A DNA stretch of 64,000 nt from Candidatus Nomurabacteria bacterium (lineage in GTDB: Bacteria; Patescibacteriota; Minisyncoccia; Phycocordibacterales; UBA9973). The stretch is taken from assembly GCA_023267215.1 (NCBI GenBank), contig JAHFNS010000001.1, forward strand, positions 22,043 to 86,042. The letters are read 5' to 3'. The notes below the pieces were generated by a model. It was not told the origin of the DNA. It did no database searches and saw nothing but the letters and a program-made list of their open reading frames with translations. Shown here one piece after another: positions 4,078 to 55,639 of this stretch; within the stretch, counting starts at the first letter, position 1, and the number at the start of each line of letters is the position of its first letter. The position numbers and the translations under genes are program-made.

Positions 4078-5014
4078 TGCGCTGACCAAAAAGAGCGTAC
4101 CGGCGGAAAATTATCCTTTTTGTACTATTGATCCATCAGTAGGTATCGTGCCTGTGCCAGATGAAAGAGTGCAAAAACTTTCAGATTTTTCAAAATCTAA
4201 AAAAACCATTCCGGCTGTTATAGAATTTGTGGATATAGCAGGACTTGTAGCTGGAGCATCAAAGGGAGAAGGTTTAGGAAATAAATTTCTGACTAATATA
4301 CGTGAAGTAGATGCTATCGCACATGTCGTGCGTACTTTCGAAGACAATTCTGTCATTCATGTTGCAAACAAAGTAGATCCAATGCAAGACATTGGAGTTA
4401 TAAATCTAGAACTCGTCTTGGCTGATTTTGAAACCATTACGAAAAGAATGGGAACCTTGGGGAAAGATCTAAAGAAGGGAGACAAAGAGGCTATTCTCGA
4501 AGAAGCTATTTTGAAAAAGTTAGCAAAGGTTTTTGAAGAAGGGAAAATGGCAACTGAAGCAAATTTAAATGATGATGAAAGATTTAAAATAAAATCTTTA
4601 AATTTGCTCACCTTGAAACCAATGCTTTATGTTTTGAATGTTTCAGAGGCGAACGAAAATATGGAAGTAGAGTTACCGAAAGGAAGTTTGTCAGTAAAGG
4701 TAGATCCAGTGTTTGAAAAAGGTTTTGATGAATTGATAAAACAAAGTTACACCCTTTTAGGTTTGGAGACTTTTCTTACTACAGGAGAAGATGAGACTCG
4801 CGCTTGGACTATAAAGATTGGTTCTACAGCACCTGTCGCAGGTATGGCTATACATACAGATTTCAAAGATAAATTTATACGGGCAGAAGTGATAGGCTGG
4901 GAGAAATTATTAGAAGCTGGTTCGAGAGCAAAGGCAAAAGAAAAAGGCTGGGTTAGAACAGAAGGGAAAGAGTATATTGTAAAAGACGGTGACGTTATAG
5001 AATTTTTGATATAA
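4016..5014 (+). CDS. ychF: Ribosome-binding ATPase YchF
   Basis: G1 motif GIVGLPNVGKSTLFNALT near the N-terminus, a G-domain and a C-terminal TGS-like region. Confidence 0.85.
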   Translation: MSSLSIGIVGLPNVGKSTLFNALTKKSVPAENYPFCTIDPSVGIVPVPDERVQKLSDFSKSKKTIPAVIEFVDIAGLVAGASKGEGLGNKFLTNIREVDAIAHVVRTFEDNSVIHVANKVDPMQDIGVINLELVLADFETITKRMGTLGKDLKKGDKEAILEEAILKKLAKVFEEGKMATEANLNDDERFKIKSLNLLTLKPMLYVLNVSEANENMEVELPKGSLSVKVDPVFEKGFDELIKQSYTLLGLETFLTTGEDETRAWTIKIGSTAPVAGMAIHTDFKDKFIRAEVIGWEKLLEAGSRAKAKEKGWVRTEGKEYIVKDGDVIEFLI

Positions 5015-5018
5015 ATGT

Positions 5019-6128
5019 ATGTTTAAGCGAATTTATTTTTTCTTTTTTACTTATATGTCGGCAATGTATTTTGCTCAAACATTGCTTGTCTTTTGGATTT
5101 TTAAAAATGGTTTTGGTTTTTCTGATCTGATTATTTTTTACTTAATTTCTTATGTGGTTGCTTTATTTTTTATTTTTCTTTTTCCACATTATAAATTTAA
5201 ATCAAAAAATTCTATTTTATATGGTGCTATATTTAGCGCTTTCAGTGTTTTAGTTTTAATAAAAATATTTAACCCTACTCAACTTTACCTTTCAGCAATT
5301 TTTAGTGGATTAAATATTATATTCTTCTGGATACCTTACAATATTATGCATTTTAAATATAGCGATGAAGAGAAAAGAGGTAGGCACAGTGGAATATATT
5401 TTTTAGCCACACCTATTATTGGTATTACTTTACAGCCTTTGACGGGAATCGTAGCAGAAAAGTTTGGTTTTGAAGTTATGTTTTTGATAGGAATTTTATT
5501 ATATTCTGTTCCCATATTTTTAATTAGATATCTTCCTCAATTTGAATGGGATTTAAATATAAAAAAAGAATTTTTGGCTCTCAAATTTAATTTCTCAACT
5601 TTTTTTCAAGGTATAACCTCTAGGGTTAGTTGGACATTGATTCCAATTTTTACTTTATTTTTTATAAAAACACCAAGCCAATTTGGTAGATTTTTCGGAT
5701 ATCTTGCATTGGTGACAGCTATTGCATCTGTGATTAATGGACATATTTCTGACAAAATGAAAAATAGAAGATATTTTTTCTATTTTTTTAGCTCTTTAGC
5801 GGTACTTAGTTTTCTACCTTTAGCTTTTGTGGAAAATTCATACTGTTGGGGTATTTTTGCTGGAATAAGTAGTTTATGTTTAAGTTTAGCAAATCCTTCT
5901 TGGCTCACATTTAATTTAGATTATTACAAAGAATTAGGGGTAGAAAAAAGTATAGTATTAAGAGAAGTTTTTCTAAATTTAGGTTATTTTTTTAATTTAT
6001 TTTTAGTATCTTTAATTTTTTATTTTACTTCTTCAACCAAGATTAGTTTATTGGTGATCTCTATATTGTGTTGTCTTTTGCCAGTTGTTTCTTATCTACA
6101 AGGGGTTTATCATGCTAAGATTAATTAA
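5019..6128 (+). CDS. Polytopic membrane protein, possibly an MFS-like transporter
   Basis: About 10-12 hydrophobic segments and a GRHSG motif between helices. Confidence 0.35.
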   Translation: MFKRIYFFFFTYMSAMYFAQTLLVFWIFKNGFGFSDLIIFYLISYVVALFFIFLFPHYKFKSKNSILYGAIFSAFSVLVLIKIFNPTQLYLSAIFSGLNIIFFWIPYNIMHFKYSDEEKRGRHSGIYFLATPIIGITLQPLTGIVAEKFGFEVMFLIGILLYSVPIFLIRYLPQFEWDLNIKKEFLALKFNFSTFFQGITSRVSWTLIPIFTLFFIKTPSQFGRFFGYLALVTAIASVINGHISDKMKNRRYFFYFFSSLAVLSFLPLAFVENSYCWGIFAGISSLCLSLANPSWLTFNLDYYKELGVEKSIVLREVFLNLGYFFNLFLVSLIFYFTSSTKISLLVISILCCLLPVVSYLQGVYHAKIN

Positions 6129-7161: not shown

Positions 7162-7728
7162 TTGTGTTATAATATTTATATGGAAACAAAACCAAAAGTC
7201 TTAAAGTGGGCTCTTATTATAGGTATTGTAGTGGTTTTAAATTTATTCTTTAATTATACTATTTCTCTATTTTATAAAGAGCCAGATTATAATGCTTATT
7301 TTCCACAGCAACAGGTCATTGAGCCGATAACTACTAGAGAAGCTTGTCTTGCTGTCGGTGGGCAATGGACAGAAAATCCGACTTATTATAAAGAGGGAAC
7401 AAACATTCCAGTTCCAGCTGGTTCTTCTCAAGTAAACAGTTATTGCAATCCTGATTTTACTAAACAGCAACAATTCAGTGAGGCACAGAAAGTTTATCAA
7501 AGAACGATTTTTATAATCCTTGTTATTTTGGGAGTGCTTTCACTTGTCACAGGAGCATTTATTGCTAATGAAATCGTTACCTTGGGCTTATCTTGGGGTG
7601 GAGTGCTCTCACTTGTCATCGCTTCTATGCGATATTGGTCTTCAGCTGACAATTTGATTAGAGTTTTGATTCTTGGTTTTGCTCTGGCAATACTCATTTG
7701 GTTAGCAGTTAAAAAATTTGGGAAATAA
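7162..7728 (+). CDS. Hypothetical membrane protein
   Basis: N-terminal TM helix plus C-terminal hydrophobic segments. Confidence 0.3.
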   Translation: MCYNIYMETKPKVLKWALIIGIVVVLNLFFNYTISLFYKEPDYNAYFPQQQVIEPITTREACLAVGGQWTENPTYYKEGTNIPVPAGSSQVNSYCNPDFTKQQQFSEAQKVYQRTIFIILVILGVLSLVTGAFIANEIVTLGLSWGGVLSLVIASMRYWSSADNLIRVLILGFALAILIWLAVKKFGK

Positions 7729-12429: not shown

Positions 12430-14109
12430 ATGCAGAGAATCTTGAAAATTTTCAGTAAAGAATACGGAAACATAAATCAAGCTGCACTTTTGATGGGAGG
12501 TTTTACTCTTCTTTCTCAAATTTTAGCGCTCTTTCGTGATAGATTTATTGCCCATTTTATCGGTCCATCACCAGAACTTGATGCATATTATGCGGCTTTT
12601 CGAGTACCTGATTTGATATTTATTTCTATTGCCTCTCTTGCTTCTATTACTGTACTTATTCCTTTCATCGTAGAAAAAATGAGTGGAGAAACAGTTACGA
12701 AAGAAGCGCGTAAATTGTTGAATGACGTTTTTACTGTTTTTTTGGCAGCAATGGTTTTTATTTCCTTGGTAGCTTTTTTAATTATGCCTTATTTGGTATT
12801 TTTCATTGCACCAGGATTTACACCTTTAATGCAGGCGAAAGTAATTTTATTTTCTAGAATAATGCTTCTTTCTCCGATCTTAATGGGTCTCTCAAATTTA
12901 TTTGGCACAATTACTCAGCTCTTCCGTAAATTTTTTATTTATTCCCTAAGTCCAATTTTTTATAATTTTGGCATAATAACTGGTATTGTTCTTTTATATC
13001 CTATTTTTGGTATCAATGGTTTAGTCTTTGGTGTTGCACTTGGAGCTTTTCTACATTTTTCGATTCAGGCTTTTGCTTCTTTTCAATGTGGATTTACTCC
13101 CAGGTTTTCGTTCTCGATTGATTTTAAAGAAATAAAAAAAATAGCTCTTATTTCTCTTCCGAGAACCCTAGGTTTATCTTTTAATAGTATTTCTCTTATT
13201 TCGATTATTGCTTTTGCTTCCTATCTATCAAGTGGATCAATTTCAATTTTCAATTTTTCATTTAATCTTCAATCAGTACCTCTTAATATTATTGGTATAT
13301 CTTATGCTGTGGCAGCCTTTCCGACTTTAGTAAAATCTTTTAACAATCAGAAAAAAGATGAATTTAGAAATCATTTGAAATCTACTGGAAGACAAATAGT
13401 ATTTTGGTCACTCCCGATTATTTTTCTCTTTATTGTTCTTCGAGCACAAATAGTTCGAGTAATACTTGGTTCTGGTTCTTTTTCTTGGGAGAATACTCGA
13501 CTCGTAGCAGCTTCAGTTGCAGTTTTTTCTATTTCGATTTTAGCACAAGGAATGACGGCCCTACTTTCTCGTGCTTATTATGCGGCAGGTGATACAAAAA
13601 GACCCTTAACTGTCAATTTATTTTGTTCAATTTTAATTATAATTTTATCTTATGTTTTTTTACATATTTTTGAGAATGTTCCATTATTTCATTATTTTAT
13701 AGAATCATTATTGAAAGTTGAAAATATTCCTGGAACAGAAGTATTAATGCTCCCACTTGCATATTCTGTTGGTACAATTTTAAATTTTGTTTTGCATTGG
13801 TATTTTGTCCGCAGAGATTTCATGAAACACGAATCTTTTATTACTAAAACTTTTTTCCAAAGTTTAGGTGCTTCATTTTTTATTGGATTAGTGTCTTATT
13901 TAGGGCTAAATATTTTTTCCCCAATTTTTGGTACGACGACTGGCTGGGGAGTGTTCTTGCAAGGTTTTATTTCTGGTATCATGGGTGTTATAGCTGGTAT
14001 TATTATTCTTTACTTGCTAAAGAGTGAAGAACTGGCTGATTTAATAAAAGTTTTCAAAACCAAATTTTGGCGTACAGATGTCATTGTTTCTCCCCAAGAA
14101 GAACTTTAA
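12430..14109 (+). CDS. murJ: Lipid II flippase MurJ (MviN)
   Basis: N-terminus LLMGGFTLLSQILALFRDRFIAHFIGPSPELDAYYAAFRVPD is characteristic of MurJ. About 14 TM helices. Confidence 0.8.
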   Translation: MQRILKIFSKEYGNINQAALLMGGFTLLSQILALFRDRFIAHFIGPSPELDAYYAAFRVPDLIFISIASLASITVLIPFIVEKMSGETVTKEARKLLNDVFTVFLAAMVFISLVAFLIMPYLVFFIAPGFTPLMQAKVILFSRIMLLSPILMGLSNLFGTITQLFRKFFIYSLSPIFYNFGIITGIVLLYPIFGINGLVFGVALGAFLHFSIQAFASFQCGFTPRFSFSIDFKEIKKIALISLPRTLGLSFNSISLISIIAFASYLSSGSISIFNFSFNLQSVPLNIIGISYAVAAFPTLVKSFNNQKKDEFRNHLKSTGRQIVFWSLPIIFLFIVLRAQIVRVILGSGSFSWENTRLVAASVAVFSISILAQGMTALLSRAYYAAGDTKRPLTVNLFCSILIIILSYVFLHIFENVPLFHYFIESLLKVENIPGTEVLMLPLAYSVGTILNFVLHWYFVRRDFMKHESFITKTFFQSLGASFFIGLVSYLGLNIFSPIFGTTTGWGVFLQGFISGIMGVIAGIIILYLLKSEELADLIKVFKTKFWRTDVIVSPQEEL

Positions 14110-27979: not shown

Positions 27980-28051
27980 GCCTAGGTAGCTCAGTAGTAG
28001 AGCGTTCCCCTGAAGAGGGACAGGTCGGGTGTGCGATCCACCCCCTAGGCA
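27980..28051 (+). tRNA. tRNA-Phe (anticodon GAA) with an unusual T-loop (G at position 55)
   Basis: Perfect acceptor (GCCTAGG/CCTAGGC), D stem (GCTC/GAGC) and T stem (GGGTG/CACCC). Anticodon loop CTGAAGA. T-loop TGCGATC instead of TTCGAWT. Confidence 0.6.
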
Positions 28052-28053
28052 CA
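28016..28053 (+). repeat. Direct repeat copy 1 (38 bp; 3' half of tRNA-Phe from the anticodon stem to the discriminator)
   Basis: AGGGACAGGTCGGGTGTGCGATCCACCCCCTAGGCACA is identical to 28412..28449. Confidence 0.9.
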
Positions 28054-29006: not shown

Positions 29007-29699
29007 TTAATTTTTCACGCTCATTCTTCTTAATTTTTCAAAAACTAGTATTATAATAATTGTAACGACCCAAAGAAAACCTAAAATTCCCAAAATATTA
29101 TTTCCACTATTATTCATTATAAAAAAATTAAAGATACTATGCAAGGTGATAGCGAGTAAAAGTCCTACCAATAAATATATTTTTTTTATAAATTTCCCCA
29201 TAAAAAAGGAGAGCCCTAAAGCAACACCTATAATACCACTCGATACAGCATGAAGAAGAGTAGAACCTAAAAATCTTAATTGCCCAGTAAGTAAGCCCAC
29301 GGTAGTTTCATTTAAAGAGAGTGGTTTAATCAAAAACATTGAATTTTCTAGGGCAGCGAATCCTAAACCAGCGGTGATTAAAAAAATTGGCCAATCTATT
29401 GGTTCATCGATTCGGTTTGATTTGTAAAGTAAAATTAATACACTTAAATATTTAATTAATTCTTCTGCACTTGCCCAACTTATTATTTGCCATTGAGATG
29501 AAAGCACATGACTTTGAATAAATTTTTGAATTGGAATGACAAAAATAACAGAAATCATTCCAATAATAAATATAGTTGCGATAAGTTTTTTTGGTTCTGG
29601 TTTTTGATTATCTTCTTTTAGCCAAAACCAAAGCCAAAGTAGGGCCGGAGTTATTCCTCCCAAAAGTGCTAAACCTAAAATTTTAGGATCGCTAATCAT
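29007..29699 (-). CDS. PrsW-family intramembrane protease-like membrane protein
   Basis: Polytopic membrane protein with an EELIKY (EExxK-like) motif and GFAALENSMF (FxxxE-like) resembling PrsW/CPBP motifs. Confidence 0.45.
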   Translation of the reverse strand: MISDPKILGLALLGGITPALLWLWFWLKEDNQKPEPKKLIATIFIIGMISVIFVIPIQKFIQSHVLSSQWQIISWASAEELIKYLSVLILLYKSNRIDEPIDWPIFLITAGLGFAALENSMFLIKPLSLNETTVGLLTGQLRFLGSTLLHAVSSGIIGVALGLSFFMGKFIKKIYLLVGLLLAITLHSIFNFFIMNNSGNNILGILGFLWVVTIIIILVFEKLRRMSVKN

Positions 29700-31899
29700 C
29701 GATTCTATTTTTACTGTTATCTAAAGGCCATTTTTCGACTAATAATAATTTTTTATTTATAGTAGATAAGATTAACCAAATTTCTTCAGTGATGAATGGT
29801 ATAAATGGGTGAAGTGCTTTAAGAAGAGTTGTAAGTTGTATATAAAGTATTGCTTTAGCGGAATCAGCATTCTTATTTTCTAGTATTTTTTTCTTTGATC
29901 TTTCAATAATAATATCGGCAAAAGTGTGCCAGAAATAATGGTAGAGTTTTTCTGCTACGATAGAATATCTGAATTCATCCATTTCTTTGGAAATTTCAAT
30001 GATTAAGTCTTCTAGCTCTTTCTCATTTATTTTATCTTCTTCGTCTAAGTTTGGTAAGTTTGATATATCAAGATCTTTAGTTTGTTCAATAACAAATCTT
30101 GATGCATTCCAAATTTTGTTAGCAAATTTTGAGTATCCACGAATATCATTTTCATTTAGTTTTAAATCATTTCCAGGAGTGTTTCCTACAATCATTGCCA
30201 TACGAAGTGCATCATTTCCATATTTTTTTATAATATCGAGTGGGTCTGTAGCTTTTTCACCTAACGATTTAGACATCTTTTTTCCGTCAGCTGTACGTAC
30301 CATTCCATGAAAATAAACATTTTTAAATGGAATTTCTCCCATTATGTATTGAGACATTAAAATCATTCGAGCAATCCAAAAGAAAATAAGGTCATACATT
30401 GTTTCAAGTACGGTTGTAGGATGGTATGTTTTTAGATCTCCAGTTTTTTCTGGTTTACCCGCTATGGTTTTAACGGCGGTGGGCCAACCTAGCGTAGAGA
30501 AAGTCCAAAGCCCAGAAGAAAACCATGTATCTAAAGTATCTTCATCTTGAGTCCACCCAGCTTCTTTTGGAGCTTCTATGTCGCAATATATTTCATTGTT
30601 ACGATACCAAACAGGAATTCTGTGTCCATACCATATTTGACGAGAGATACACCAATCACGTAAATTTTCGATCCAATTATAATAAACTTTTTCAAAATGA
30701 CCTGGTAGAATTTTTATTTTTCCATCTCGCACAGGTTCTAACATGAGTTCTTTCAAACTTTTATTTTCCCTAGAAGGGATTTTTTTATTTACATCTATAA
30801 ACCATTGGAGCATTATTTGTGGTTCTATCATTCCACCAGTTCTTTCAGCTGTGGCTACTCTGTTTATATAATTTTCATCAATTGATACAAGTAATCCCTT
30901 TTCTTTTAATTTTTCTACTATTTTTTCACGAGCATCATTTATTTTCATTCCTGCAAATTCTCCTGCTATTCCAAGTAGTTTTCCATATTTATCAATAATT
31001 TGTTCTTTGTCTAATTTATATTTTTCTGCAAGAGCAAAATCTTCGTGTGAATGCCAAGGGGTGATGGTCATAACTCCAGTACCGAATTCCATATCAATCA
31101 TTTTATCTTTTATTACAGTAGCTTCTATTGGTCCATTAATCCATTCTAAATTTATTTTTTGTCCATGTTTCCAGTCTAGGTATCTTTTATCATCTGGATG
31201 CATTACTACATATTTGTCTCCAAATTTTGTTTCTGGTCGAGCGGTGGCTATTTCAAATGGGCCATATTTAAAAGTATAGAATTTATTTTTTCTTTCTTCA
31301 TAGACAACCTCGTCATCAGAAATAACTGTTTGACCTTTAGGATCCCAATTTACTATACGATGTCCTCGATAAATAAGACCATCATCATACATTTGTTTAA
31401 AAGTTGTTCTTACAGCTAAATTCCTTTTTTCATCTAGGGTATATGCTTCTCGAGACCAATCTAAAGATGCTCCCATTTTTTTACATTGATTGACAATAGT
31501 GTCATGAGAATCTTGCGCAAATTTTTCTACTCGTTTTAAAAATTCTTCACGTCCAAGGTCACTTTTGCGGATACCTTCTTTTTCTAAAAGTTTTTCTACT
31601 TTTGATTGAGTAGCTATGGCAGCGTGATCAGTACCTGGGAGCCATAGGGTTCTTTTTCCCTGCATTCTTGCATGACGAGTCATTATGTCTTCAATTATTA
31701 AAACGAGGGCATGCCCTGTGTGAAGATTACCCGTCACGTTTGGTGGGGGGAGTACCATAGAAAAAACTGGAGCATCAGGTTTGGTTACTCCTTTTTCTAT
31801 ACATATATCAGGGTTAAAAAAACCGCTCTCTTCCCAGATTTTATAAATTTTATCTTCCGTTTCTTTTGGATCGTAGGGCTTTAGTAATCTTTCATCCAT
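29692..31899 (-). CDS. valS: Valyl-tRNA synthetase
   Basis: PPPNVTGNLHTGHAL (HIGH region) and KMSKSLGE. Class I editing synthetase layout. Compact at 735 aa. Confidence 0.85.
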   Translation of the reverse strand: MDERLLKPYDPKETEDKIYKIWEESGFFNPDICIEKGVTKPDAPVFSMVLPPPNVTGNLHTGHALVLIIEDIMTRHARMQGKRTLWLPGTDHAAIATQSKVEKLLEKEGIRKSDLGREEFLKRVEKFAQDSHDTIVNQCKKMGASLDWSREAYTLDEKRNLAVRTTFKQMYDDGLIYRGHRIVNWDPKGQTVISDDEVVYEERKNKFYTFKYGPFEIATARPETKFGDKYVVMHPDDKRYLDWKHGQKINLEWINGPIEATVIKDKMIDMEFGTGVMTITPWHSHEDFALAEKYKLDKEQIIDKYGKLLGIAGEFAGMKINDAREKIVEKLKEKGLLVSIDENYINRVATAERTGGMIEPQIMLQWFIDVNKKIPSRENKSLKELMLEPVRDGKIKILPGHFEKVYYNWIENLRDWCISRQIWYGHRIPVWYRNNEIYCDIEAPKEAGWTQDEDTLDTWFSSGLWTFSTLGWPTAVKTIAGKPEKTGDLKTYHPTTVLETMYDLIFFWIARMILMSQYIMGEIPFKNVYFHGMVRTADGKKMSKSLGEKATDPLDIIKKYGNDALRMAMIVGNTPGNDLKLNENDIRGYSKFANKIWNASRFVIEQTKDLDISNLPNLDEEDKINEKELEDLIIEISKEMDEFRYSIVAEKLYHYFWHTFADIIIERSKKKILENKNADSAKAILYIQLTTLLKALHPFIPFITEEIWLILSTINKKLLLVEKWPLDNSKNRIDD

Positions 31900-32011: not shown

Positions 32012-32497
32012 GTGATAGTAAGTGATTTAAAACAATCAATTCGACGAAAGGTCGAGGAGGTAAAAATGGCTACTGTAAATAACGAAAAGACAGAGAATGG
32101 TTTTCTGAAAAAAAGAGAAATTCATAATATTGATTTCTCAATTTCGGCTGTTGTTTGTTTTTTAGATCAGGTTATCCAACCTATCCAAGGAAAAAGAATT
32201 AAATTAATTAGCGGAGGATTTAATGCTTGTATAATAAACGGATGTACTTTAAAAGGTGGTGCATTAAATTTTCTCATAGAGATAAAACCGTTTTCTTGGG
32301 AAAAAGGGTATTCTGTTATTATCAGGCTAATGAAAATTGATAGTAGCTTTAATTGGTGGCTATGTTATATTGGTTTTCGTTTCATCGATAAATGCGATGA
32401 AACTTTTAGAGTAGAACATCCAGTGTGTTATATTAATTTTTCGAAAGTTCTCGTAGAAGAATGCAGAACTTTTTTGACCAATATCTTAAAGAATTAA
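32012..32497 (+). CDS. Hypothetical Cys-rich protein
   Basis: 161-aa ORF divergent from valS. No motif recognised. Confidence 0.25.
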   Translation: MIVSDLKQSIRRKVEEVKMATVNNEKTENGFLKKREIHNIDFSISAVVCFLDQVIQPIQGKRIKLISGGFNACIINGCTLKGGALNFLIEIKPFSWEKGYSVIIRLMKIDSSFNWWLCYIGFRFIDKCDETFRVEHPVCYINFSKVLVEECRTFLTNILKN

Positions 32498-33723
32498 TTT
32501 TTTCCTAGTTTTAAGTTTCCATCGGCCCGTATTTCTTTTTTTGGAATGCGGGCTTTATTCTTTATATAATTTAAATATCCAGCTACGCCTATCATTATAG
32601 AATTATCTCCAGTTAATGCTTTTTCGGGGAAAAGTAATGTTGTCTTTTTATCTATCGTTTTTTCCATTTGTCTTCTTAAGTGTTCGTTGCAAGAGACTCC
32701 ACCGGCTACTATTATTGTTTTTACTTTAAATTTTTCTGCTGCCTTTGTTGTTTTGTGAATGAGAACATCAACTACAGCATTTTCAAATTCTAGTGCTATT
32801 TTTTGTTTTATTTCTTCTTTTTCTAAGATATTTGGATTTTCTTTTTTTAAATCACGTATCAAATACAAAACGGCAGTTTTTAATCCAGAAAAAGAAAAAT
32901 CAAAATTTTTACTATACATCATAGGGCGGGGAAGAACTGCAGAAAAATCAATCTTTTTGGGGTCGCTGTCTCCGCTTACTAGCGGAGCGCTGCCTCTCGG
33001 CCCGTCGGCCTGCGAGACACCCCATAAAGATTGTTTTTCTGCAGTTCTGACTTCCTCTGCTAACCTTGAAATTTCTGGTCCACCAGGATATTTTAGACCC
33101 ATCATTCTCGCTACCTTATCATAGGCTTCTCCAGCGGCATCATCTAATGTTTGTCCCAATATTTTATATTGTATCCAATTTTTTGAGAGAATGAGTTCAG
33201 TGTGTCCACCTGAGACGAGTAAAGATAATGTAGGGAATTTCATTTTTGGAATTTTAAAACTTCCTTTGTTTTTAGCAAAAACAGAAAATATATGTCCCTC
33301 CATATGATTCACTGGTACGAGAGAGATGTTCCATTTTTTTGCGAGCTCTTTCGCGAAAACTATTCCACTCCAAAGTGAAGGCTCTAGTCCAGGGCCATAT
33401 GTGACGGTTATTAAATCAATTCCAGCTGGATTAGTATCAAAGGCAAGGCCTTTTTGAATTCTTAAGGCCTTGCCTTTTAAAAAAGCCTGGCTTTTGGAGA
33501 ATTTCTTTAAAACTTCTTCTAAAAGTATAGGTAAATTTTTTATGTGTTCTCGTTTTGCAAGGGCAGGGAAGACTCCGCCATATTCTGCGTGTATTTTTAT
33601 TTGTGAATTAGCAGCATTGGCCAATATCTTAAAAGAGGCATTATTATTTTTAATGTCTCCTTTGGCTTCCAATATACTTATTGCTGTGTCGTCGCAACTT
33701 GTTTCAATACTTAAAATTTTCAT
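32494..33723 (-). CDS. tsaD: tRNA N6-adenosine threonylcarbamoyltransferase TsaD, carrying an in-frame repeat-element insertion
   Basis: MKILSIETSCDDTAISI, HMEGH, YPGGP...LPRPM, FDFSFSGLKT. 409 aa versus ~340 typical. The extra segment corresponds to the element at 32933..33048. Confidence 0.85.
   Translation of the reverse strand: MKILSIETSCDDTAISILEAKGDIKNNNASFKILANAANSQIKIHAEYGGVFPALAKREHIKNLPILLEEVLKKFSKSQAFLKGKALRIQKGLAFDTNPAGIDLITVTYGPGLEPSLWSGIVFAKELAKKWNISLVPVNHMEGHIFSVFAKNKGSFKIPKMKFPTLSLLVSGGHTELILSKNWIQYKILGQTLDDAAGEAYDKVARMMGLKYPGGPEISRLAEEVRTAEKQSLWGVSQADGPRGSAPLVSGDSDPKKIDFSAVLPRPMMYSKNFDFSFSGLKTAVLYLIRDLKKENPNILEKEEIKQKIALEFENAVVDVLIHKTTKAAEKFKVKTIIVAGGVSCNEHLRRQMEKTIDKKTTLLFPEKALTGDNSIMIGVAGYLNYIKNKARIPKKEIRADGNLKLGKN
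32933..33048. repeat. ~116-bp inverted-repeat element (26-30-bp AT-rich arms, GC-rich core) inserted in-frame in tsaD
   Basis: AGAACTGCAGAAAAATCAATCTTTTTGGGG - GC-rich core (CTCCGCTTACTAGCGGAG, GGCCCGTCGGCC) - CCCCATAAAGATTGTTTTTCTGCAGTTCT. Arms match with 2 mismatches. Confidence 0.8.
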
Positions 33724-33733
33724 AATATTTTTG

Positions 33734-33806
33734 TGCGCGATACAGGATTCGAACCTGTGACCTACCCCACGTCAAGGGGTCGCTCTACCAACTGAGCTAA
33801 CCGCGC
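33734..33806 (-). tRNA. tRNA-Val (anticodon GAC)
   Basis: Reverse complement: acceptor GCGCGGT/ATCGCGC, D-arm AGCTCAGTTGGTAGAGC, anticodon loop TTGACGT, T-arm CAGGTTCGAATCCTG. Lies 10 bp upstream of tsaD. Confidence 0.85.
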
Positions 33807-39813: not shown

Positions 39814-39898
39814 GGAGATGTGGCAGAGTGGTTGAATGCACCGCTTTCGAAAAGCGGCATACCGAAAGGTATCGGGGGTTCGAATCCTCCCATCTCCG
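39814..39898 (+). tRNA. tRNA-Ser (anticodon CGA), long variable arm
   Basis: Acceptor GGAGATG/CATCTCC, D-arm TGGCAGAGTGGTTGAATGCA, anticodon loop TTCGAAA, variable arm CATACCGAAAGGTATCG, T-arm GGGGTTCGAATCCTCC, discriminator G. Confidence 0.85.
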
Positions 39899-39952
39899 CA
39901 AAAATTTTATGTTATAATGTATTTCTTATCAGTTAATATACAAAATAAAAAT

Positions 39953-52764: not shown

Positions 52765-52773
52765 AAAGCAAAA

Positions 52774-52804
52774 GGACGAAAGAATAATCTTTCGTCCAGT
52801 TTTA
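52774..52804 (+). terminator. Rho-independent terminator after murF
   Basis: GGACGAAAG-AATAAT-CTTTCGTCC followed by AGTTTTAT. Confidence 0.7.
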
Positions 52805-53193
52805 TGGTCGTGATCAAAATTAGTTTATGGGATAAGGTTGCGTAAGAATTTTTTAAAATTCCAATTACAACTTTTTAATCCTATTTTTATTGCAATAATA
52901 GTTAATATGATTATAACTATGCTTGCAACTTGGTATGGTTCAAGTAAATTTAACTTTTCCCACATAAGAACTCCTAAGGCTGGTTTGGATATTCGTATAT
53001 AAGTATATCATATCTAAAATATTTGTCAAGTATTGATTTATTTTTTAATAAATTGTAATCTATATTTTGGATATGCTCTTTATAGAAAGAAACTTGATTT
53101 TAGTATCAATACTAGGCCTCAAATCCTATTGTATTGAGAAAATACTAAATCAGGGTCTAATATAGACCTTTCTATGCACAATGAGTAATCTAA

Positions 53194-53478
53194 TTGCCTC
53201 GTAAAACAACATGGGGCAATTTTCTTTTAAATTTAAAAATAGTAGGAGGAAATATGTTTATTTTCACGCCATTTTTACCATATATTTATATAGGAATCAT
53301 TCCTTTGTCTTTGATTATTGCTTTTTTAATCAATTATGTTTTGAAGGCTAAAGGAAGAAGAAAAGAATTTAGATTTTTTCTCCAAAAATTCTTTTATATA
53401 TGGCTTTTTAGTTCTATCACAATTTCAATAATTACAAAAATTACTGAAATTTATATAAACGGTTGGAAAGTTTTGTAG
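53194..53478 (+). CDS. Hypothetical small membrane protein
   Basis: 94 aa with 2-3 TM helices. Confidence 0.2.
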   Translation: MPRKTTWGNFLLNLKIVGGNMFIFTPFLPYIYIGIIPLSLIIAFLINYVLKAKGRRKEFRFFLQKFFYIWLFSSITISIITKITEIYINGWKVL

Positions 53479-53494
53479 CACGCATTTATGTGTG

Positions 53495-53986
53495 CTACTT
53501 TTTTATTTCAAATTCTGCTTTGTCTTTTTCTTTTAGTACCTTTATAAAGGCTGTTGAATGTGATGGACTTGAAGTAAAAGAATCGTAAGTTATTTTTTTT
53601 AATCCAGATTTTAGTTCTTCTAATGTTTTAGACTCAAATTCAGCTATCTCACTATTATGTTTTTCACTGTCAAAAATTATTCCGTAAAAAAGCCTATCTT
53701 TTAGATTTTCTAGTGTATAAAATATAACATACTGATCTTCTGTCATAGTGGTAGAAGCTGTTTTGAAATTATTTTTTGCTTCCATCTCAATACTATAATC
53801 TATTAACTCTCTACCGTTTTTAACCCTAGGCTTGTCTTCTTTTGGTCTTGTTCCATTTGTTGGTTCTTTAGCATCCTTTTTTATTTTATAGAAATTTCTA
53901 TTTTCAGGAGGCATTTCATAAATATTAGCCATAAATTTAAAATAAGTTATTAATAAACTACTTGTGTATTGTACAATGAAAATCAA
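53495..53986 (-). CDS. Hypothetical protein
   Basis: 163 aa with no motif. The start could instead be at MANIYEM. Confidence 0.3.
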   Translation of the reverse strand: MIFIVQYTSSLLITYFKFMANIYEMPPENRNFYKIKKDAKEPTNGTRPKEDKPRVKNGRELIDYSIEMEAKNNFKTASTTMTEDQYVIFYTLENLKDRLFYGIIFDSEKHNSEIAEFESKTLEELKSGLKKITYDSFTSSPSHSTAFIKVLKEKDKAEFEIKK

Positions 53987-54004
53987 AATAAATAAACCCT
54001 GTAT

Positions 54005-54256
54005 TTAACGATGAATACAGCCAGCCCAACAGCATGGTCTTCTCATTCCATTTTTTAGTTTTGATAGACCAACTTTTATTCGGCGGTTTCGTGTTCCTAT
54101 TTGCTTTGCAGAAATGACCCAACATATCCATTCATTACGTGCGAGCGGAGTGATGTCTTCCCAGGTAGTGAGTATCTTAGAGTCAGCAAGAAGAGCCTTC
54201 TTAAAATCTGCTGGAATTTTGTGCACCACGCCGGTTGAATTTTTTTCTTTATTCAT
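54005..54256 (-). CDS. YdeI/OmpD-associated family protein
   Basis: ...TTWEDITPLARNEWICWVISAKQIGTRNRRIKVGLSKLKNGMRRPCCWAGC matches the OmdA/YdeI C-terminal consensus. Confidence 0.55.
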   Translation of the reverse strand: MNKEKNSTGVVHKIPADFKKALLADSKILTTWEDITPLARNEWICWVISAKQIGTRNRRIKVGLSKLKNGMRRPCCWAGCIHR

Positions 54257-54337
54257 AAGTTTATTATAGCAAAGTTAAGATGAAGTCAATGAATTATGCG
54301 AGATTGGAACCTGATTTCCAATCAAATTAAGGTGTTT

Positions 54338-55285
54338 TTAAACAATTATGCGTATAGTTTTAAAGTTCTTTGAGTCAAGCCCTTTCATATTGATATTTTC
54401 TTTTACAAATTTAGCAGTTTCTATTTGTTGGGGTGAGTATATGTATTCTATAAAATTATCTCCATTCTTTTTCAAAACCCCTGTTCCAACTTGGAATTGA
54501 ACGACTGATGTTTTTGTTGTTCCTATTGGGATGCTAGTTCTTTTACCAAATGGAGTAGCAGATATTGAAATTCTGTCGGAGGTTTGATGATATGATCTTC
54601 TTTTACTTATAGACATATAAGCGTCATGAATAAGATGATTTTCTTCTAGATTTATCTCCTCTTTTTTGTTTGTTTTAATATTCTCCTGTATTCTTCTTAT
54701 GTCTTTCTCTGTTAATTGGGTTGTTCCATTCTGCTTTAATCTGTTTATTTGGTCATTTAAATCAGCCATAAATTCTTCCTTGGAACTATACCTCTCTCCG
54801 ACAGGACTAAAAGTAAATTTAAAATTTTCAGGCAGATAAGGTTGTATGAATTTTATTAAATCTCTAAACACTTTTTTGTATTTGTTTGTGTCTTCTTCGG
54901 GTATACTGTTCATTAATTCTAAAATTGCATCGTCACCACAAAAATCAAACCATACTCCTTCCTTATATATATCGGTTATAGGTTTAAGCCAGTAAGCATA
55001 ATAAATCATAGCAAAAAGTTCTGCCCAGTCTGGCTCTGGGCTTTCATCAAATTTCCATAATTTATATGAACCAAACGGAATGACAATTTTTATAGGTTCG
55101 TTATTTTTAATATTTAACTCTATTGCTTCACGGATTTTAGGATAAGTTTCTGGGTTTACGCTATATTTTCTAAACTTTTTTGACATTATTGTGTCATATA
55201 TAAAACCAGCAAGATTTCCTTCTTGCTTAACTTTTTTATCTTTTATGCCTTTTAATCTTTGTTCGATATATTCTTGTGCAGTCAT
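54338..55285 (-). CDS. Hypothetical protein with a possible minimal nucleotidyltransferase-like motif
   Basis: IPFGSYKLWKFDESPEPD (GS-x10-ExD) followed by FDFCGDDAI. Speculative assignment. Confidence 0.3.
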   Translation of the reverse strand: MTAQEYIEQRLKGIKDKKVKQEGNLAGFIYDTIMSKKFRKYSVNPETYPKIREAIELNIKNNEPIKIVIPFGSYKLWKFDESPEPDWAELFAMIYYAYWLKPITDIYKEGVWFDFCGDDAILELMNSIPEEDTNKYKKVFRDLIKFIQPYLPENFKFTFSPVGERYSSKEEFMADLNDQINRLKQNGTTQLTEKDIRRIQENIKTNKKEEINLEENHLIHDAYMSISKRRSYHQTSDRISISATPFGKRTSIPIGTTKTSVVQFQVGTGVLKKNGDNFIEYIYSPQQIETAKFVKENINMKGLDSKNFKTIRIIV

Positions 55286-55287
55286 AG

Positions 55288-55357
55288 AGATGTGGGTAGG
55301 AGTTGAACCTACGATTATCCCTTGCGGGGATACGCCTTACCGTTTGGCTACCACATC
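55288..55357 (-). tRNA. tRNA-Cys (anticodon GCA)
   Basis: Reverse complement: acceptor GATGTGG/CCACATC, anticodon stem-loop TATCC-CCGCAAG-GGATA, T-arm GTAGG-TTCAACT-CCTAC. C at position 33 is atypical. Confidence 0.6.
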
Positions 55358-55567
55358 GATTTTATAATATCATAAAAATGTAATATTGAAATGCTTCGCA
55401 TGCAAAATTTATGTGGTCACAAATCACTAAGTATAATTTTTTGCTATGCTCAAATTCTACGTAAGTGTTTGCCGACCCCGGCTCGGCTATTTTTCTACTG
55501 AAAAATTAGGCCTGTGCCTTCACAAATCGCTCACAAATAAAGCAGTTTATTTGCTTTGCACGATTTG

Positions 55568-55639
55568 TGACCCTACAGAGAATCGGACTCTGATTTTATC
55601 CTTGAGAAGGATACGTCCTAGCCGTTAGACGATAGGGCC
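55568..55639 (-). tRNA. tRNA-Glu (anticodon CTC), a paralog of the tRNA-Glu at 39673..39744
   Basis: Reverse complement GGCCCTATCGTCTAACGGCTAGGAC-GTATCC-TTCTCAA-GGATA...GAGTCCGATTCTCTGTAGGGTCA. Confidence 0.8.

Follow-up and report, generated by a model that had tools for sequence, protein, structure and literature searches.

What is the gene that begins 2 nt behind a cysteine tRNA gene, and why do the two lie together? This question is raised by a 64,000-nt stretch of DNA (the window) from a Candidatus Nomurabacteria bacterium (contig JAHFNS010000001.1). The window is AT-rich (GC 32.5%), and its nearest relatives are Patescibacteria of the Nomurabacteria/Paceibacterota type. A previous reading made from the letters alone (the sequence-only reading) had described four open reading frames (ORFs) and a tRNA-Cys at 53194-55285 and just beyond. 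It had proposed a small genomic island at the tRNA gene, with a 315-aa protein that might be a minimal nucleotidyltransferase (NTase) of the pol-beta/CD-NTase type. The four ORFs and the tRNA-Cys were all confirmed at these positions, and the discriminator base and the ATG at 55285 are just 2 nt (CT) apart. The near-constant junction of the 315-aa enzyme with its own atypical tRNA-Cys across Patescibacteria suggests an undescribed enzyme-tRNA partnership. The features of the junction are as follows:

55364-55372, minus strand: extended -10 promoter TGATATTAT, as read from the sequence; it ends 6 nt before G1 of the tRNA-Cys
55288-55357 by Rfam (54.8 bits), 55287-55357 by ARAGORN, minus strand: tRNA-Cys(GCA)
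55286-55287, minus strand: 2-nt spacer CU between the discriminator U73 and the AUG, read from the sequence
54338-55285, minus strand: 315-aa ORF (orf315), PvcA/IsnA-like, with a Rossmann (HUP) fold of the type found in class I aminoacyl-tRNA synthetases (aaRS) and cyclodipeptide synthases (CDPS)

The sole profile signal for the 315-aa protein was DIT1_PvcA (PF05141; E=4.7e-4, residues 58-206). Its score of 20.2 bits lies below the gathering cutoff of 26.4, and the protein therefore falls short of the isonitrile synthase threshold. No NTase, CBASS or defence family was matched in Pfam, NCBIfam or PADLOC (E<=1). The homologs number 909 and come mostly from Patescibacteria metagenome bins; the close family is strongly conserved, with a mean column identity of 60% and 44 invariant positions. 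An AlphaFold2 (AF2) model was built from the homolog alignment, with a predicted local distance difference test score (pLDDT) of 91.3 and a predicted template modelling score (pTM) of 0.91. The fold search with this model gave PvcA/PIsnA as the first match, followed by class I aaRS and CDPS folds; the structure prediction for 54338-55285 showed no NTase fold. The PvcA fold and the core motifs of the isonitrile synthases are both present, since the motifs PI..P..K, PDxAE and Y.PG are common to the 315-aa protein and PIsnA. The class Ic aaRS-like Rossmann fold of the CDPS enzymes is also present.

The NTase proposal had been built on two strings, GS-x10-ExD and FDFCGDD. Both are literally there (G72-S73, ten residues, then E84-P85-D86; F113-DFCGDD-119), but the residues that should matter are not conserved, and the strings are PvcA-type motifs. 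In the model, GS comes after strand 1 and ExD caps a helix. Position 73 is variable (S/A/T/G) in the close family, and the equivalent of the catalytic CDPS serine is not conserved; D118 and D119 are lost in distant members of the wider superfamily. A HIGH motif was not found in the protein, where the helix after strand 1 reads PEPDWAEL. The only KMSKS-like string is GTTKTS (255-260), and its lysine is lost in distant members; no conserved ATP-binding signature was found in the family. The NTase/defence reading was rejected on the missing profile match and the contrary fold search. The 315-aa protein is an isonitrile-synthase relative with a tRNA-synthetase-like fold, not a nucleotidyltransferase, and belongs to a stand-alone Patescibacteria clade. 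No Fe(II)/alpha-ketoglutarate oxygenase (IsnB/PvcB) or isonitrile-tailoring gene was found in the window or in the contexts L001, L002, L007 and L009. Viral contigs (IMG/VR) held no relatives of the protein, and a viral origin of the module was rejected on this ground.

A distant subfamily (22-26% identity) occurs outside the Patescibacteria in genomes of 27-54% GC, without the tRNA and with ordinary Shine-Dalgarno (SD) leaders (L142-L146). Its genes stand in a conserved operon, apparently previously undescribed, with a short-chain dehydrogenase, a SIR2_2/IF-2B fusion, a protein of about 380 aa of no assigned family, and HAD/NUDIX/PRK/SIS members; L145 has IF-2B alone in place of the fusion. 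A recombinase or transposase adjoins the operon in two cases. The gene content suggests an operon of the sugar-phosphate type. The contrast with the Patescibacteria clade can be read both ways: where the operon partners are missing, the tRNA is the only constant partner of the enzyme.

Linkage of the two genes was surveyed in 87 loci with a homolog and upstream sequence. The homologs are 38-81% identical and have differing neighbours; a further 80 loci had been added from metagenomes (38-70% protein identity). In 61 of the 87 loci, ARAGORN reported a tRNA-Cys on the same strand no more than 12 nt from the ATG. Most of the ARAGORN-negative loci also carry a tRNA-Cys-like element, as seen when the junctions were read by eye. 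A search for the acceptor sequence that required acceptor pairing raised the count to 76/87, and in all 76 the element lies head-to-tail with the gene and ends 0-11 nt before the ATG. The spacer measures 1-11 nt at 65 homologous junctions. Three further loci hold remnants; two of these are internally deleted (L133, L134), and the third (L120) is split by a 1.06-kb insertion. Eight members have no trace of the tRNA. These are scattered on the protein tree, which indicates an ancestral linkage with several independent losses. A tRNA of the same GATG type was not found elsewhere in about 1.7 Mb of fetched related Patescibacteria sequence.

The annotated contexts of the module all differ, and include a type III restriction-modification system, nrdD with a radical-SAM gene, an APH kinase, and Dus/GH18; in every one of them the tRNA-Cys(GCA) ends right at the start codon. 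A conserved protein partner was considered and rejected, since the neighbours differ everywhere and the OmdA gene that follows orf315 in the window recurs downstream only in L095/L096. In Staskawiczbacteria (L002 5654-9679, also L003 and L004), the module lies exactly between nrdD and the radical-SAM gene, which is presumably the nrdD activase gene nrdG, as if the module had been inserted into an nrdD/nrdG operon. Such flanks were seen only at the Staskawiczbacteria locus. In L074 (5903-6060), the tRNA-Cys is intact; the downstream gene stops after about 18 codons and its similarity resumes at residue 52, so that a pseudogene or an assembly error is probable.

As a control, the other tRNAs of these loci were inspected, and 6/83 also abut an ORF. 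For example, tRNA-Val(GAC) lies 0-9 nt before an ATG-initiated ORF in four of five cases, and the gene is a different one each time (409, 252, 155 and 419 aa). The tRNA-Val(GAC) cases are:

33733-33806 of the window, minus strand: tRNA-Val(GAC), followed by the ORF at 32493-33723, minus strand
15809-15882 of L009: tRNA-Val(GAC)
10535-10607 of L074: tRNA-Val(GAC)
6045-6117 of L139: tRNA-Val(GAC)

The enzyme family, unlike the genes behind tRNA-Val(GAC), is always paired with a Cys tRNA. Tight spacing is thus ordinary in these genomes; what stands out is that one family is constantly paired with one odd tRNA.

The linked tRNA is of two kinds, here called class A (canonical-looking) and class B. 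The window copy belongs to class A. Its acceptor stem is GAUGUGG/CCACAUC with the discriminator U73, and CCA is not encoded. The cloverleaf, GCA and U73 of a canonical tRNA-Cys are in place, but the anticodon loop reads C32-C33-G-C-A-A37-G38, with C33 instead of the universal U33. Its 54.8 bits are the lowest Rfam score among the eight tRNAs of the window. Among 54 unique canonical-looking copies, acceptor pairs 1-4 (G-C, A-U, U-A, G-C) are invariant, and the anticodon-stem pairs show 3-5 pair types each. C33 occurs in 46/53 linked tRNA-Cys; whereas U33 is present in 79/79 other tRNAs of these loci. The usual linked loop is C-C-G-C-A-A-G, in which C32 and G38 could pair. The anticodon GCA is found in all 65 elements except L107, and U73 in all 65, where the extraction pattern itself required a T.

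U73 and GCA are identity elements of cysteinyl-tRNA synthetase (CysRS). The linked tRNA is a distinct lineage, with an invariant G1-A2-U3-G4 and with U73 and GCA kept. In L009, it can be compared with an ordinary counterpart. The linked copy scores 49.4 bits, the lowest of any tRNA in L009; the unlinked tRNA-Cys, in a tRNA cluster (12530-12602), has the acceptor strand GGCCAGG, U33 and an Rfam score of 65.5 bits. The T-loop of this unlinked tRNA-Cys reads TGCAATT, so that position 55 is G and not the expected Psi. Two other candidate peculiarities were dropped. Conservation of C74 is nothing special, since in all eight window tRNAs the discriminator is followed by C, and a full CCA is encoded in none. 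Pairing between the anticodon loop and the mRNA was also rejected, as the complement CTTGCGG is absent from the transcript.

The class B elements are confined to one protein clade and have lost both the D-loop GG and the T-loop TPsiC. They were detected neither by ARAGORN nor by Rfam, even at E<=1. Of the 21 pairs of their cloverleaf, 11 show compensatory changes, which supports the fold; 10/11 elements have retained GCA, and all have U73. The order at the junction is a genomic CCA, then 1-8 nt, then ATG. The split locus L120 is of this class: a complete element lies at 4873-4942, 1.06 kb upstream, and only a 3' half stands beside the ATG (about 5950-6000). It seems that the tRNA-like gene has received an insertion and that its 3' half was duplicated, and the tRNA-like element may itself be an integration target. 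A processing signal has no need of a conserved anticodon, and a fixed non-canonical loop would not be maintained in a decaying pseudogene.

The way in which the two genes are expressed is suggested by the promoters. A -10 box (TAnnnT hexamer) ends 6-7 nt before G1 in 42 of the 65 unique homologous elements, and 34 of the 64 elements having such a hexamer also carry an upstream TG. Transcription probably starts at or beside the mature 5' end of the tRNA. The same arrangement is seen for the window tRNAs at 55567-55639, 39814-39899, 27980-28052 and 55288-55357, where an extended -10 box ends 6-8 nt before position 1. The 5' leader would thus be absent or only 1-2 nt long, leaving little for RNase P. 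At the 3' side, the 2-nt spacer gives no room for a ribosome-binding site, so that an mRNA cut free by 3' processing of the tRNA would have practically no leader. Leaderless mRNAs seem to be the norm in this genome. SD-like motifs precede 2 of the 43 long ORFs of the window; whereas a TAnnnT box, often TGnTATAAT, stands 5-9 nt before the ATG at 19/43 (background 13%). Examples are the ORFs at 7179, 16612, 20881, 29691-31899 (minus strand) and 61368. Where family members lack the tRNA, a -10 box precedes the ATG by 6-11 nt. From the tRNA-Val(GAC) cases, tRNA processing may be a general way to make leaderless mRNAs here.

These observations suggest a sequence of events as follows. One transcript would begin from the extended -10 box, at or beside tRNA position 1. 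An RNase Z-type cut after U73 would free the tRNA together with a near-leaderless mRNA, which would suit a genome where SD sites are essentially absent. The freed tRNA would probably be charged with cysteine, since the CysRS identity elements U73 and GCA are kept; its altered anticodon loop, or its altered elbow, should make it a poor substrate for the ribosome. The enzyme would then use the linked RNA as a dedicated partner. It would most likely act on the cysteinyl moiety of Cys-tRNA, either by cysteinyl transfer or by an IsnA-like reaction of the alpha-amine with a ketose phosphate; modification of the tRNA itself is less likely. Judged from the genes, we give a probability of about 0.5 to the reading in which a dedicated, cysteine-charged tRNA serves the enzyme as substrate or donor. 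A wider proposal is offered only tentatively. The orthogonal pair might represent a new class of aminoacyl-tRNA-dependent (or tRNA-charging/transforming) enzymes, derived from the isonitrile-synthase/class Ic aaRS fold. The tRNA, kept off the ribosome, would then serve as a dedicated carrier of cysteine for a product made without the ribosome, for instance a thiol of low molecular weight or a modified cysteinyl compound.

Several points weigh against the partnership. The contact between protein and RNA is something that we infer from the gene arrangement. The closest structural relatives, PvcA and PIsnA, use free amino acids and not aminoacyl-tRNA, and the CDPS catalytic serine and the aaRS HIGH/KMSKS motifs are absent from the protein. 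The tRNA is missing in about 10% of the members. Expression of an ORF from directly behind a tRNA gene is common in these genomes, so that spacing alone proves nothing; moreover, the linkage may be hard to break once the gene lacks its own promoter. A second, canonical tRNA-Cys in class A genomes is known from one genome type (L009). The basic N-terminal SKKFRK had been considered as a tRNA-binding signature; it is not tRNA-specific and was dropped, since the distant subfamily without a tRNA still has R39 and a portion of the motif. The main alternative, which we regard as less likely, is linkage for expression only. The protein would then be an IsnA-like small-molecule enzyme acting on an amino acid or amine and a ketose phosphate; the tRNA would supply a promoter and, by its 3' processing, a leaderless AUG, and the pair would persist since the gene lacks its own promoter. 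The dominance of leaderless starts (SD 2/43; -10 box before the ATG 19/43), the other tRNAs abutting ORFs (6/83; tRNA-Val-GAC 4/5) and the -10 box at 6-11 nt in tRNA-less members all agree with it, as do the retained PvcA core motifs. The distant subfamily also fits, with its tRNA-less operon of an IF-2B-type isomerase fusion, the dehydrogenase and HAD/NUDIX/PRK/SIS genes. However, this leaves unexplained why tRNA-Cys and no other tRNA is found in 76 loci, why the non-canonical loop CCGCAAG with C33 is conserved, and why this tRNA type never occurs without the gene in the sequence fetched. The class B elements are a further difficulty. The tRNA processing enzymes recognise the elbow; whereas it is the elbow that class B has lost, with GCA, U73 and CCA kept.

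The invariant acceptor stem and the conserved, unusual anticodon loop could also mark the linked RNA as the substrate of a factor that specifically matures, modifies or charges tRNA-Cys, as aaRS paralogs such as GluQRS might suggest, and that would make a defective C33 tRNA usable or charge it in an unusual way. Class A is otherwise like functional tRNAs and lies above the Rfam threshold, which agrees with this idea. We nevertheless consider it unlikely, since the protein has neither HIGH/KMSKS nor a conserved ATP-binding signature, L009 has a normal U33 tRNA-Cys too, and class B has lost the elbow needed for ribosomal use, which speaks against a role in translation. Still less probable is cis-regulatory mimicry, in which the element would stay on the 5' end of the mRNA, and binding of the protein or of CysRS would repress translation, as at the thrS operator. 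A protein bound to an element that abuts the start codon would occlude it, and covariation holds the tRNA-like fold even where canonical features are lost. Class B, however, encodes CCA and a spacer, typical of released and matured RNAs; most class A elements are fully tRNA-like, and an unprocessed acceptor stem at the AUG would block leaderless initiation constitutively. The small island at tRNA-Cys with a minimal pol-beta/CD-NTase for signalling or defence, as proposed by the sequence-only reading, is now hardly credible. The block is indeed non-syntenic and lies in an accessory hotspot that elsewhere carries an OLD-family nuclease, and the motif strings are present. Against this stand the missing NTase or defence match, the PvcA-like fold and the unconserved S73, D118 and D119. 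The block has no integrase and no att repeats, viral contigs have no relatives, the tRNA-Cys moves with the gene, and the high conservation (60% mean column identity, 44 invariant positions) is unlike that of fast-evolving defence genes.

The surroundings of the module were compared at 51 MurF-anchored loci from related Nomurabacteria/Paceibacterota genomes, in 31 of which both anchors are visible. The backbone of penicillin-binding protein gene, murF, gap and tRNA-Glu(CTC) is conserved in 31/51, usually followed by RmuC and an exonuclease; the gap of 19-9059 bp holds unrelated cargo in these 31 loci. In the comparison that had been suggested earlier, relatives have murF, a gap and tRNA-Glu(CTC), and the block is not conserved. 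None of the 51 loci has orf315, tRNA-Cys or the two further ORFs orf163 and orf94 listed below, and the OmdA gene is found in the gap of one locus only (L037). In other loci the gap carries, among others, genes for an OLD-family nuclease, for an H+-pyrophosphatase, for an HI0933-like flavoprotein and for proteins of no assigned family. The boundaries in the window are:

55568-55639, minus strand: tRNA-Glu(CTC), the conserved right-hand boundary (ARAGORN, Rfam)
52774-52797: murF terminator, the left-hand boundary

The block 52765-55566 is cargo in a hypervariable spot, and its conserved boundary tRNA is tRNA-Glu(CTC), not tRNA-Cys. The module shares the spot with ORFans and the OmdA gene as fellow cargo. 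The idea of an island thus holds in part: the block is absent from the same site in the relatives (51 loci), but no integrase or recombinase was found among its four ORFs (Pfam, NCBIfam, PADLOC) and no att repeat was seen. The GC content of the block (30.5%, against 32.5% for the whole window) gives no clear compositional signal. The claim that tRNA-Cys was the integration site fails, because no relative has it there, and it moves together with the 315-aa gene as a unit. A search for a degenerate copy of its 3' end in 52810-53190 had been suggested; there is no copy of the 3' end of tRNA-Cys or tRNA-Glu (up to 3 mismatches) anywhere in the window beyond the tRNA genes themselves.

The other features of the block are:

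54005-54256, minus strand: 83-aa YdeI/OmdA-family protein (Pfam PF13376, E=8e-16)
53495-53986, minus strand: 163-aa ORF (orf163), an ORFan; 145 aa if read from the ATG at 53932
53475-53498: bidirectional terminator, 3' of orf94
53194-53478, plus strand: small two-helix membrane ORF (orf94), 94 aa from a TTG
53029-53002, minus strand: near-consensus sigma-70 promoter of the 46-aa ORF, TTGACA-16-TGtTATACT (11/12 matches, with TG)
52825-52965, minus strand: 46-aa hydrophobic membrane ORF inside the stretch 52810-53190, with an AGGAG SD site

The 83-aa ORF had been assigned to the YdeI/OmpD-associated type, which was borne out with a score of 58.2 bits (cutoff 25.6). It has a TATAAT box of its own at 54263-54268, 6 nt ahead of the ATG, and its mRNA is probably leaderless. 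It is a loosely associated accessory gene. OmdA/YdeI genes 61-66% identical to it were found in L095 (7125-7355), L096 (3033-3263) and L037 (10841-11038). In L095/L096 the gene immediately follows a distant orf315 homolog (45% identity); in L037 it lies within the murF-tRNA-Glu gap without orf315. For orf163, the sole match among 5.8 billion proteins was itself, called as 145 aa; no family was found in Pfam, NCBIfam or PADLOC, and a single-sequence AF2 model was uninformative (pLDDT 39.5). The divergent 94-aa membrane ORF (orf94) is present as described, but its start is more likely the ATG at 53254 (74 aa), which has an AGGAGG SD sequence ahead. Its peak hydropathy is 2.33 (19-residue Kyte-Doolittle), and it had no family match in Pfam, NCBIfam or PADLOC and no homolog in any fetched locus.

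The stretch 52810-53190 had been taken as non-coding, which proved wrong: it holds the 46-aa ORF with its promoter and AGGAG. An ORF 42% identical to it occurs in the same place after murF in the relative L012 (E=6e-5). An antisense 54-aa ORF (52838-53002, plus strand) overlaps this hydrophobic peptide gene. The 46-aa ORF and orf94 are among the few SD-bearing genes of the window, and their SD sites could point to a foreign origin or to toxin-like small peptides.

Some consequences hold regardless of function. Among the genes annotated as tRNA-Cys in these genomes there may be an isoacceptor that takes no part in translation. ARAGORN and Rfam both overlook an entire class of tRNA-like genes, and leaderless mRNAs appear to be made by tRNA processing in these organisms. 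Enzymes that divert aminoacyl-tRNAs from translation include the Fem transferases, the CDPS enzymes, the PEARLs and the L/F-transferases. If the partnership is functional, it would form a new branch of such enzymes, and would give the isonitrile synthases an evolutionary tie to enzymes that use tRNA and have the class I synthetase fold. The reduced Patescibacteria genomes would then also keep a dedicated non-canonical tRNA, either with C33 or without the elbow. In the open-access literature searched, there was no report of a link between PvcA-like proteins and tRNA, of this tRNA-Cys type, or of C33 in a bacterial tRNA-Cys; the papers on SepRS/SepCysS in Parcubacteria mention neither the 315-aa protein nor C33.

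Among known systems, the isonitrile synthases IsnA/PvcA/PIsnA/Dit1 (PF05141; PDB 3E59, 9DH4) have the fold in common with the 315-aa protein, with an identity of only about 15%. These enzymes bind an amino acid and ribulose-5-phosphate, and turn the amine of L-Tyr or L-Trp into an isonitrile. The present family differs in that it is stand-alone, is restricted to Patescibacteria-like genomes and has its gene fused to a tRNA-Cys gene. The isonitrile-synthase fold is related to the class Ic synthetases and to the CDPS enzymes, which use aminoacyl-tRNA. The CDPS enzymes draw on the ordinary tRNAs of the cell, and their genes are not known to be fused to one for a tRNA. The similarity to them is much weaker than to PvcA, and the 315-aa protein has an extra C-terminal beta-rich domain. 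As for islands targeted to tRNA genes, a variable block likewise lies beside tRNA genes here; however, neither an integrase nor a duplicated tRNA 3' end was found, and the tRNA-Cys is cargo.

A closer parallel for the tRNA may be found in Staphylococcus, where FemXAB use dedicated non-proteinogenic tRNA-Gly isoacceptors. Like these, the linked tRNA keeps its synthetase identity and deviates at positions that matter to the ribosome or to EF-Tu (C33, or loss of the D-loop GG and T-loop TPsiC), and a canonical isoacceptor coexists with it in at least one genome (L009). The Fem proteins are GNAT-like; whereas the enzyme here has a PvcA-like fold, and the tRNA and enzyme genes are physically fused. 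In pylT-pylS, the other close analogy, tRNA-Pyl stands beside its dedicated synthetase, and PylRS is a class II enzyme with ATP-binding motifs. The two systems both couple an unusual tRNA gene to the single enzyme that uses it, or is proposed to use it; the present one has no synthetase motifs and a sense anticodon (GCA). The tRNA punctuation of mitochondria is also similar, as the tRNA abuts the start codon and its 3' processing would create the 5' end of the mRNA. In mitochondria any tRNA serves; whereas here a single gene family has held on to a single specific, atypical tRNA through deep divergence.

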